Shown piece after piece: positions 14,063 to 31,130 of a stretch of 64,000 nucleotides of DNA. Each line of letters opens with the position of its first letter. Position 1 is the stretch's first letter. The DNA is taken from the NCBI RefSeq assembly GCF_029227855.1, contig NZ_CP074356.1; one strand, 5' to 3'. A program made the position numbers and the translations under genes. This stretch comes from Escherichia coli. Lineage in GTDB: Bacteria > Pseudomonadota > Gammaproteobacteria > Enterobacterales > Enterobacteriaceae. The notes under the pieces are model-generated. The model was not told the DNA's origin. It was given only the letters and a program-made list of their open reading frames with translations, and did not search any database.

Positions 14063-14287
14063 TTACTGACGGTAGGCTTGTTTAATTTGCTTAACCGTTT
14101 TGGAAAATACTGCAGCCTGGGTTTCGTCTTCGATCAGCGCAAGCTGTTTTTCCATCTTTAACATCACGCGGCCCGCGTCAGCTTGTCCCATCGCCTGCAG
14201 CATCAGCGTCAGCATCGCTTTCAGGCAGGAGACTTCATTTGCCAGTTCTTGATTATTCTCGGCAGTAGAAAAATCAGGCGTACTCAT
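14063..14287 (-). CDS. yecF: DUF2594 protein YecF
   Basis: 74-aa ORF in conserved position between sdiA and uvrY. Confidence 0.8.
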
Positions 14288-14745
14288 TTATTTTCCTCGT
14301 CATGTTGCAATGAAAATTTGCGGTGAAAAATGTTAAGGCGGCGGAGTATACCATAAGCTTTGCTAAAAATATCAGTGGTTGTTTTTTGAGCGTGATATCG
14401 GCAGTGCTATAAAATACGTTAATATAATGACCAATAAATATTTTTATCATGAATGTTTTTTGCCCGTATTGTTCGGGTTAATTAATGTTACATATTCAGC
14501 GGGCTGATTTTCATTTTTGCTGAATAAAGTCAATTTTTGTCACATTTCATCGTAGGGCTTACTGTGAAACGATCCCGGAAGCCGTTGGTGACGGGCGTGA
14601 CCATAACTGTGGACAATCGAATTGACAAAAACGAGAGAAAAATCGAATACCCACCATTTTTAACGTTTCAAAGTTGCAATAAAAACCGCTAATATACGAA
14701 TGACTAACTATCAGTAGCGTTATCCCTATTTCTGGAGATATTCCT

Positions 14746-21559: not shown

Positions 21560-21883
21560 TTAGAGAAAGACAGGGAAGGCGGAATGATGGCACTGATATG
21601 ACAAAGTGAATTCCGTATTCAAACATAAGGAACCCGCAAAGAGGCTACAGTTGCCTACTGGCTGACCAAAGGGGATCGCGTGGGTATAGCCTTCCTGCTG
21701 GCATGCGCGATCGGCGATCCCGCGACTGACATAACGATCGGTATGGGCATGCTGCAAAAAAGCCTGGTCATAAACCAACCGTACAATACCTGTTGCCGCG
21801 TCAACTTCGCTCACATGGGCCTGGCGAGTAACCGTACACCCCGCCAGCGTTATTAATGAAAGAGTCAGAATCAGAAGTCTCAT
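21560..21883 (-). CDS. yecR: Lipoprotein YecR (flagellar regulon member)
   Basis: 107-aa ORF with lipobox LITLAGC. Confidence 0.8.
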   Translation of the reverse strand: MRLLILTLSLITLAGCTVTRQAHVSEVDAATGIVRLVYDQAFLQHAHTDRYVSRGIADRACQQEGYTHAIPFGQPVGNCSLFAGSLCLNTEFTLSYQCHHSAFPVFL

Positions 21884-22144
21884 GGTCCAGCCAGAAGAGT
21901 AAGAGAAAGCACTATTTTACGTGTTACAGCGCTGCGACAATGGCCGAAAAAGACGCCTGGCAGGCGCTATTTCTTGCCATCTGTAGGTGTCAGAAATGGG
22001 GGGCTGCTTTTTGATTATCATTTTTATAACATTAAAGGGGTATTTATGTGATTTGCATCACATAAAGATTGATTTTTGTGATGGTTGTCATATTATAAGT
22101 GCAAAGACAATAACACCTGTATAACAAATGGTCGGAGTGCCGCG

Positions 22145-22231
22145 ATGAAACTGCGCAAAATCCTGAAAAGTATGTTCAATAACTATTGCAAGACGTTCAA
22201 AGACGTACCGCCAGGCAATATGTTCCGATAA
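22145..22231 (+). CDS. azuC: Small membrane protein AzuC (28 aa)
   Basis: atg aaa ctg cgc aaa atc ... ttc cga taa = MKLRKILKSMFNNYCKTFKDVPPGNMFR; followed immediately by a terminator; below ORF-track size cut-off. Confidence 0.8.
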   Translation: MKLRKILKSMFNNYCKTFKDVPPGNMFR

Positions 22232-22232
22232 C

Positions 22233-22260
22233 AAAAAACCTGCTCCGGCAGGTTTTTTTG
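22233..22260 (+). terminator. azuC: Rho-independent terminator of azuC
   Basis: aaaaaacctgc-cgg-caggtttttttg. Confidence 0.7.
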
Positions 22261-22345
22261 TGTCCTGATGACGGTGGATGTGACTATCGCTGAAGATGTG
22301 AAGCCGCTACTATAACGGCTTTCAAAATGCTATCAGGAGTTTACG

Positions 22346-22597
22346 ATGTCCCAGCCGCTGAATGCCGATCAGGAACTGGTTTCTGATGTGGTTGCTTGCC
22401 AGTTGGTTATCAAACAAATTCTCGACGTTCTGGATGTAATCGCGCCCGTTGAAGTTCGCGAAAAAATGTCCAGCCAGCTGAAGAATATCGACTTTACTCA
22501 CCATCCCGCCGCCGCAGACCCGGTCACCATGCGGGCAATCCAAAAAGCCATCGCGCTGATTGAACTCAAGTTTACCCCACAGGGCGAATCCCATTAA
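22346..22597 (+). CDS. yecJ: DUF2766 protein YecJ
   Basis: 83-aa ORF in conserved position between azuC and ftnB. Confidence 0.75.
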
Positions 22598-23179: not shown

Positions 23180-23699
23180 ACCTAATATCCTTATATCCAG
23201 AAGTGGAGAGGTGCAAGATAAATCAAAACACCATAATTACTGTTTGCAGAATAATTCCTTTCTGCCGGTCCGAAATGTGATCGTGGAGTCAATTCTGACG
23301 ATGATCTGAAATAAGAATAACGTCTGAATGGGTATAAGAAAATGCTTAAATCATCAAGTTTATATATTTTTACATTTCATTGATGAAATCAATGTAACTG
23401 CAATGAATTTTAATGATAGTGCTTTTTGTATCTTGTTGATATTAATCGGTGAATTTGAATTCATGATGAAGCAATGATTTTTTAAAACGTTTTTTCATTT
23501 TTGCGATATGGCTCTCAGTATACGTGTTCTGTTAATTAATGAACACAGTGATAATTAATGGCGAAATGAATGACGCGCTTTTTCCACATCTTTGAGTTGC
23601 GGTTATTACACCATTTCAAAAACTCAACGCCAGGTAATGTGGCCTATTGACTGGTTAAAAAAAAGACATCCCGCTGGGTACTAAAGACAACAAGGATTT

Positions 23700-23770
23700 C
23701 CAGGCTAATCTTATGGATTAATCTGCTGTGCACTAGACAATTTGTCAGACAAATTGGCTTTTCCTTATGT
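23700..23770 (+). promoter_or_regulatory. araF: araFGH control region (AraC half-site-like TATGGAT and promoter)
   Basis: AT-rich 795-bp intergenic region; cttatggattaatc resembles an AraC half-site; exact sites not resolved. Confidence 0.35.
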
Positions 23771-23974
23771 CTTTTCCCGCTAAATTTATGCACGTTCTCA
23801 CTGTAATTCTGCGATGTGATATTGCTCTCCTATGGAGAATTAATTTCTCGCTAAAACTATGTCAACACGGTCACTTATCTTTTAGTTAAAAGGTAATGCT
23901 TTGTTTTCCGATTAATTTAACGAAAGTCATTCGTTTTTGCCCTACACAAAACGACACTAAAGCTGGAGAGAACC

Positions 23975-30350: not shown

Positions 30351-31130
30351 AACCTGTTCCTTATTCTGTGAACTTCAGGTGACATTAAAGCTTTACTCCT
30401 AATGGAGAAACGACGCAATCCCAACTCAGTCAAACAGGTAAATATTAGTCTGATTATTAGTAAAGACAATTAATCAATCACTCTCGGTGATCATATGATT
30501 TCAACTGTAATTATAAGAAAATAATGTACTGATTCTCCATGTTAAACAAGTGGTTAATATATGTAAAACATTTTATTAACATTAAGTTGATTGTTGCCTT
30601 TCTTTGTATTTAATTAGTTTGTTGTGCGGTAAGTATCTGTTTAAAAATAGCTTATCTGGTATTGCATTAAAGCAATTATTTATGGCAGATGATTATTTAC
30701 GGTGAGTTATTTTAACTGTGCGCAACATCCCATTTCGATTATTCCTGTTTCATTTTTGCTTGCTAGAGTCGCGAAAAACTTTTTAACAGATTGAAATACA
30801 CCCAAAACAAAAGTATGACTTATACATTTATGTTAAGTAATTGAGCGTTTTGTGTGATCTGTATCACACATTATTGAAAATCGCAGCCCCCCTCCGTTGT
30901 ATGTGAGTGTAGTGACGAGTAAAGTTGCGTCGATTTAGGAAAAATCTTAGATAAGTGTAAAAAACCCCTTCTATTTGTGAGGACTTATTAAATCCAAAAA
31001 AGGGGCTCTGCCTGTTGCAGCTTATCGCAACTATTCTAATGCTAATTATTTTTTACCGGGGCTTCCCGGCGACATCACGGGGTGCGGTGAGACCGCATAA
31101 AAATAAAGTTGGTTATTCTGGGTGGGAATA
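30351..31130 (+). promoter_or_regulatory. flhD: flhDC master-operon control region and long 5' leader
   Basis: 780-bp AT-rich intergenic region between divergent uspC and flhD; contains the CRP site; no IS element. Confidence 0.7.
30853..30868. promoter_or_regulatory. flhD: CRP binding site of the flhDC class 1 promoter
   Basis: TGTGA-tctgta-TCACA, exact match to the CRP half-sites, about 270 nt upstream of flhD ATG. Confidence 0.75.

Follow-up and report, generated by a model that had tools for sequence, protein, structure and literature searches.

A 28-codon gene between yecR and yecJ in Escherichia coli is azuC, carried on the known AzuCR transcript

The 64,000-nt stretch of Escherichia coli DNA analysed here (the window) carries, on its plus strand at 22145–22231, an open reading frame (ORF) of 28 codons and a TAA stop that reads ATG AAA CTG … TTC CGA TAA and is translated as the 28-residue peptide MKLRKILKSMFNNYCKTFKDVPPGNMFR. 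The ATG start follows, at a distance of 7 nt, a Shine-Dalgarno sequence read from the letters as GGAG (22134–22137, plus strand). Its neighbours in the RefSeq annotation are yecR on the minus strand (21560–21883; Pfam YecR, 1.4e-30) and yecJ on the plus strand (22346–22597; DUF2766, 2.7e-55), the latter separated from the ORF by a gap of 114 nt. RefSeq places azuC at exactly the coordinates of the ORF, in agreement with a preliminary description of the window, which had proposed a 28-codon azuC between yecR and yecJ. The same description had regarded the gene as missed by the ORF track, and this is a fair statement: the mechanical ORF list was made with a default cutoff of 60 amino acids (aa), at which nothing would be shown in the azuC frame, and with the cutoff lowered to 20 aa the frame is listed solely in a 48-aa form that begins at TTG 22085, one of 27 ORFs of 20 aa or more in 1.4 kb.

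The peptide is letter-for-letter identical to UniProt AZUC_ECOLI and WP_010723106.1 in an exact-sequence look-up, and it scores 75.9 bits against the NCBIfam equivalog NF033642 (stress_AzuC; cutoff 30, E = 1.3e-21), with residues 2–27 aligned to profile positions 1–26 of 26. Together with the RefSeq coordinates, these matches confirm the earlier identification as AzuC. In the annotation of strain K-12, azuC (b4663) occupies 1987873–1987959 on the minus strand and is overlapped by the ncRNA azuR (b4434, formerly isrB; 1987843–1988001, minus strand), which corresponds to window positions 22103–22261, so that the transcript alias IsrB given in the preliminary description is also correct. Between 22030 and 22290, window and K-12 differ only at 22056 (C for T), which falls in the spacer of a distal CRP site and also within the FNR and PhoP sites known from the literature, and at 22100 (T for C), at position −3 from the transcription start site (TSS). 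Both differences lie in the promoter region upstream of the TSS and leave RNA and protein unchanged, the whole 164-nt transcript (22103–22266) being 100% identical to K-12 azuR/azuC. Peptide, transcript, the neighbours yecR and yecJ, promoter, CRP sites, FnrS site and terminator are thus those of K-12 AzuCR. Among complete E. coli genomes, the stretch 21900–22350 is present in 5419 of 5426, annotated as azuC and yecJ, and the 87-nt azuC coding sequence (CDS) in 5418 of 5426, nucleotide-identical in 3542. The transcript was first found as a small RNA (sRNA) candidate, IS092/IsrB (PMC8915982), and translation of AzuC in K-12 has been published from SPA tagging and ribosome profiling (summarised in PMC8915982). 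The locus is the already characterised azuC/AzuCR, and nothing in it is new for E. coli biology.

To follow the gene beyond E. coli, yecJ was used as a synteny anchor, and 80 species-level loci from a genome collection were searched with tblastn for an AzuC-like ORF. Such an ORF was found in 58 of the 80 yecJ-bearing species, belonging to more than 12 Enterobacteriaceae genera, including Escherichia, Citrobacter (the C. amalonaticus/sedlakii group), Enterobacter, Lelliottia, Huaxiibacter, Leclercia, Silvania, Kosakonia, Pseudescherichia, Pseudenterobacter and Pseudocitrobacter; in loci with a full 2-kb flank it lies 65–122 nt upstream of yecJ. All 58 orthologues have 27–29 codons, an ATG or GTG start and a stop codon, and all are preceded, 6–10 nt upstream of the start, by a Shine-Dalgarno GGAG (GGGG in one species). 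The GTG starts occur in the Enterobacter/Lelliottia group (loci L019, L032, L038–L041 and L044), residue 11 is W instead of F in much of Enterobacter, and the AzuC N terminus is two codons longer in Pseudocitrobacter (L081 and L082; MKQRMRKILK…).

Linkage to yecJ holds in all 58 azuC-bearing species (L004–L082), with a variable gene on the other side; yecR was detectable upstream at only 17 of the 58 loci, and a yecR-azuC module, suggested by a deletion at locus L003, was not supported. An AzuC-like ORF near yecJ was not found in Salmonella enterica subsp. arizonae and diarizonae, the Citrobacter freundii group, C. koseri, Buttiauxella or Escherichia sp. MOD1-EC7003 (L003); absence was assessed near yecJ and does not prove absence from the genome. 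The yecJ of L003 is 100% identical to that of the window, the yecR-azuC segment is missing (L003 1600–2000), and the ftnA promoter region runs directly into a degenerate azuC terminator (…CACAAAAAAACTGTTCCGGCTGGTTTTTTG…). Since the ftnA promoter region abuts this terminator-like remnant, yecR and azuC appear to have been deleted, in what looks like a lineage-specific event.

Transcription of AzuCR (IsrB/IS092) runs on the plus strand from A22103 to 22266, giving a 164-nt RNA with a 42-nt 5′ UTR, in line with the published K-12 TSS (1988001) and transcript length (164 nt; PMC8915982). A promoter scan placed a −35 hexamer, TTGATT, at 22069–22074 and a −10 hexamer, TATTAT, at 22091–22096, ending 6 nt before the TSS (both plus strand); the sequence around the −10, GTCATATTAT, is conserved in nearly all orthologues. 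A distal CRP site, TGTGATTTGCATCACA (22047–22062, plus strand), has perfect consensus half-sites and is centred at −48.5 from the TSS, and a proximal one, TGTGATGGTTGTCATA (22077–22092, plus strand), has one mismatch, is centred at −18.5 and overlaps the spacer and the −10 hexamer, a position that would fit repression by occlusion of RNA polymerase. Both CRP sites and both hexamers are conserved across genera in 58 distinct orthologous promoters, in which the distal half-sites are invariant or nearly so. The pattern TGTGAN6TCACA, with at most one mismatch allowed, occurs three times in the 64 kb, twice at the azuC promoter. The third match, TGTGATCTGTATCACA (30853–30868, plus strand), also has perfect half-sites and lies ~270 nt ahead of the start codon of flhD (31131); we take it to be the known CRP activator site of flhDC.

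The two CRP sites of the azuCR promoter and CRP-mediated repression have been described (PMC8915982, PMC12266141), and a 2025 study adds repressor sites for FNR, NarP and PhoP (PMC12266141). The K-12 coordinates of the latter study were converted as window position = 2010104 − K-12 position, the alignment being gapless here, which puts the published NarP, PhoP and FNR sites at 22028–22044, 22041–22058 and 22046–22065, respectively. They form a composite upstream operator at 22028–22065, to which no strand is assigned, and overlap the distal CRP site.

At its other end, the gene runs straight from its stop codon into an intrinsic terminator (22231–22261, plus strand) that consists of an A-run, the stem CCTGC/GCAGG, the loop TCCG and seven T, the sequence after the stop being AAAAAACCTGC-TCCG-GCAGGTTTTTTT. 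The core stem is formed by 22239–22243 and 22248–22252 and is followed by the T-run at 22253–22259. Folded alone, 22229–22266 reaches −16.0 kcal/mol, versus −5.25 ± 2.2 kcal/mol for dinucleotide shuffles (z = −4.9, 0 of 200 as good), and the strong terminator that had been noted directly after the gene is therefore real. Its stem is invariant, with a variable loop, in the 58 species. A consensus terminator scan passed over it, probably since pairing between the upstream A-run and the T-run leaves the hairpin without an unpaired T tail. At the azuC locus, no Rfam family reaches its gathering score; weak matches to STnc370 (minus strand, 33.4 versus 54) and rsmX (23.4 versus 56) were rejected, their alignments resting on the terminator hairpin only.

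AzuC carries a net charge of +6, and the helical hydrophobic moment of its residues 1–20, computed at 100 degrees, is 0.53, a value reached by 1% of shuffles. No transmembrane segment was found in the peptide, the best 19-residue Kyte-Doolittle mean being −0.32 versus the ~1.6 expected of one. AzuC is a cationic amphipathic helix on the membrane, peripheral and not transmembrane. In published fractionation experiments, the protein was membrane-associated through its amphipathic helix, and this association was lost in an I6L7-to-EE mutant (PMC8915982). The term ‘small membrane protein’ used in the preliminary description accordingly holds for the identity of AzuC and for its membrane association, but not in the sense of a membrane-spanning protein. 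AzuC also binds and stimulates GlpD, with which it co-purifies (PMC8915982). After the helix, the peptide ends in a C-terminal tail with the invariant pattern YCxTFKDVPPGxMF, which would be a natural candidate for the contact with GlpD.

The same RNA has published activities of its own. By pairing directly with the cadA and galE mRNAs, the AzuCR transcript represses both genes, with compensatory mutations restoring repression, and cadA-gfp expression is higher in a chromosomal azuCR deletion; the AzuR pairing region lies inside the azuC ORF, so that translation and pairing compete (PMC8915982). On the target side, pairing is located near the cadA ribosome-binding site (RBS) and inside the galE CDS (review PMC12612679). 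Within the window, the predicted pairing region spans 22183–22220 (plus strand), with 22183–22203 assigned to cadA and 22203–22220 to galE, limits that come from predicted duplexes with the K-12 targets. In a windowed local search, AzuCR nt 81–101 pair with cadA −3 to +19 at −19.6 kcal/mol and nt 101–118 with galE +12 to +29 at −15.9 kcal/mol, alternative local duplexes of similar energy existing. Duplex prediction over whole lengths had imposed pairing from end to end and told nothing about galE or FnrS, which is why local windows were used. In their location, on the AzuCR side as well as on the two targets, the predicted duplexes are consistent with the published pairing.

[quoted passage not shown] The target site, CACCUGU, is found at 22114–22120 (plus strand), 25–31 nt upstream of the ATG, and is complementary to the 5′ end of K-12 FnrS, GCAGGUG, with six Watson-Crick pairs and one G·U pair. 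Of 59 orthologues, 42 have CACCTG near −31, mostly in the fully complementary form CACCTGC.

These elements suggest how the locus would work as a whole. A sigma-70 promoter (−35 at 22069, −10 at 22091) would start the 164-nt RNA at 22103, and the RNA would end at the terminator at 22231–22261. Ribosomes would load at the GGAG at 22134 and translate the 28-aa AzuC, and the AzuR stretch at ~22183–22220 would repress cadA and galE by pairing around the start of the former and early in the coding sequence of the latter; the mRNA and sRNA roles would compete because the nucleotides read by ribosomes are also those bound by target mRNAs. Transcription would be repressed by cAMP-CRP at 22047–22062 and 22077–22092, with FNR, NarP and PhoP acting as further repressors immediately upstream, and under anaerobiosis FnrS would pair with CACCUGU at 22114–22120 and block AzuC synthesis. 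All elements, the identity with K-12 and the purifying selection described below were derived from the sequence here; translation, GlpD binding, target repression and the effects of the regulators are known from K-12 experiments in the literature, made on a sequence identical to this one.

The locus is, with high confidence, the azuCR dual-function gene, serving both as the mRNA for AzuC and as the base-pairing sRNA AzuR, under the control described. Were it instead a small-protein gene only, with no role as a regulatory RNA, the reported pairing would have to be an overexpression artefact, and much of the published repression data does come from plasmid overexpression (PMC8915982). The substitution pattern across genera could be read in the same direction: among 52 distinct orthologous ORFs, synonymous third-position entropy is 0.97 in the pairing half (codons 14–25/27) versus 0.49 in the N-terminal half (codons 2–13), the residues encoded by the pairing region being invariant while their synonymous sites vary freely, and outside Escherichia the cadA-pairing stretch has 1–6 changes. 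Within Escherichia, however, nucleotides hardly vary in the 3′ half of the ORF, with three variable sites in 42 nt versus 11 in the first 39 nt, a contrast that is only suggestive in so small a sample (six species-level representatives). More directly, repression of cadA and galE was restored by compensatory mutations and cadA-gfp rises on chromosomal deletion, as cited above, and the RNA in the window is identical to the one tested in K-12. A locus that encodes AzuC and nothing else is therefore very unlikely.

The opposite reading, that this is the non-coding sRNA IsrB and that the 28-codon frame is open by chance, can appeal to the discovery of the transcript as an sRNA candidate, to the ncRNA annotated here in K-12 and to the abundance of chance short ORFs in the region (the 27 counted above). 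It is refuted by the codon-position pattern. In 54 distinct nucleotide sequences, the third codon position is variable at 26 of 27 codons, the first at 10 of 27 and the second at 11 of 27, and dN/dS (Nei-Gojobori) is 0.105 in the annotated azuC frame versus 3.9 and 1.0 in the shifted sense frames. Y14, C15, T17, F18, K19, D20, V21, P22, P23, G24, M26 and F27 are invariant despite variation of their codons. This is a textbook signature of protein-level purifying selection on the azuC ORF. The preliminary description had made its ORF stand or fall with translation and with conservation across Enterobacteriaceae; translation is published, as cited above, and the gene is conserved there, in the 58 species and more than 12 genera given above. 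Further evidence against a non-coding locus comes from the Shine-Dalgarno sequence, start and stop conserved in those 58 species, from the NF033642 equivalog match, and from the tagged protein, ribosome profiling and GlpD co-purification (PMC8915982), leaving the chance-frame explanation with hardly any credibility.

Least credible is the idea that the real gene is either a 48-aa antisense ORF (22088–22234, minus strand), which 53 of 54 distinct orthologues keep open and which was once annotated as c2317 in strain CFT073 (PMC3141248) but has a dN/dS of 2.06, or the 48-aa sense extension from TTG 22085, with which the mechanical ORF list starts the frame but which begins upstream of the TSS at 22103 and in most orthologues has no in-frame start between the upstream stop and the ATG; neither is in the current RefSeq annotation, and both were rejected. 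Another antisense frame, frame 1, has a low dN/dS (0.185) and is not coding either, with stop codons in 54 of 54 sequences, the low value being an expected artefact of third positions shared with the sense frame. The 48-aa antisense frame stays open because its stops would require the sense codons TTA, CTA or TCA, which are rare, and it serves as an example of a misleadingly ‘conserved’ ORF.

For the dual-function azuCR gene, the comparison across genera also bears on the age of its two activities. Because the pairing half of the ORF is without extra synonymous constraint across genera, the RNA function may not be family-wide. Several azuC-bearing groups, namely the Enterobacter cloacae complex, Citrobacter and Leclercia adecarboxylata, are classically lysine-decarboxylase negative, and may for this reason lack the cadA target. 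It is quite possible, if tentative, that AzuC, its linkage to yecJ and its control by CRP and FnrS are ancestral across many Enterobacteriaceae genera, and that AzuR pairing is a recent, Escherichia-specific addition on codons 14–26. Part of this reading is a spread of azuC wider than the ‘limited number of enteric bacteria’ of the literature. It is favoured by the 58 of 80 species with the ORF, by the conserved promoter operators and FnrS site, and by synonymous sites in the pairing region that drift between genera but hardly change within Escherichia. That the peptide and its regulatory sites are far more widespread in Enterobacteriaceae than sRNA-like constraint is the one mildly new point; it bears on the origin of dual-function RNAs, here as a coding gene that would have acquired a riboregulatory role.

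Among other dual-function RNAs, SgrS/SgrT of E. coli resembles AzuCR in that one short transcript provides both a small protein and pairing with mRNAs, both arms acting on carbon metabolism. The two share no sequence similarity, and the pairing region of AzuCR overlaps its CDS, so that its activities compete, unlike in SgrS (PMC8915982). VcdRP of Vibrio cholerae and Spot 42/SpfP of E. coli are, like AzuCR, CRP-repressed dual-function RNAs, but are unrelated to it in sequence and differ from it in their targets (PTS transporters, citrate synthase) and in what they require of chaperones (PMC12612679).

As a 28-codon gene that is hidden by a 60-aa cutoff and yet recoverable by careful reading, azuC can serve as a positive control for genome scans. 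It also illustrates that small genes can be confirmed by comparison without experiment, from the codon-position substitution pattern and from conservation of the Shine-Dalgarno sequence, stop codon and terminator. That functional genes of less than 60 aa exist in the window, as had been stated from azuC, is correct, and azuC is not the only small gene that such a cutoff hides, as RefSeq also annotates yobI (62283–62348, plus strand; 21 aa, ‘stress response small protein’) and yecU (14274–14450, minus strand; 58 aa). The preliminary description had further found no short ORF that it could support in the intergenic regions 23180–23974 and 50077–50461. This agrees with the first region, which is unannotated in K-12 and RefSeq, but the second begins with the 3′ part of the sRNA MicL (49848–50155, plus strand; Rfam RF02654, 365 bits, full length), which starts inside cutC and extends ~80 nt into the intergenic region. 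Two other Rfam matches in the window lie above their gathering scores: C0465 (36512–36589, minus strand; 111.6 bits), between cheW and tar, and ES036/CssrF (8062–8103, minus strand; 42.1 bits), between the flagellin gene and fliA.
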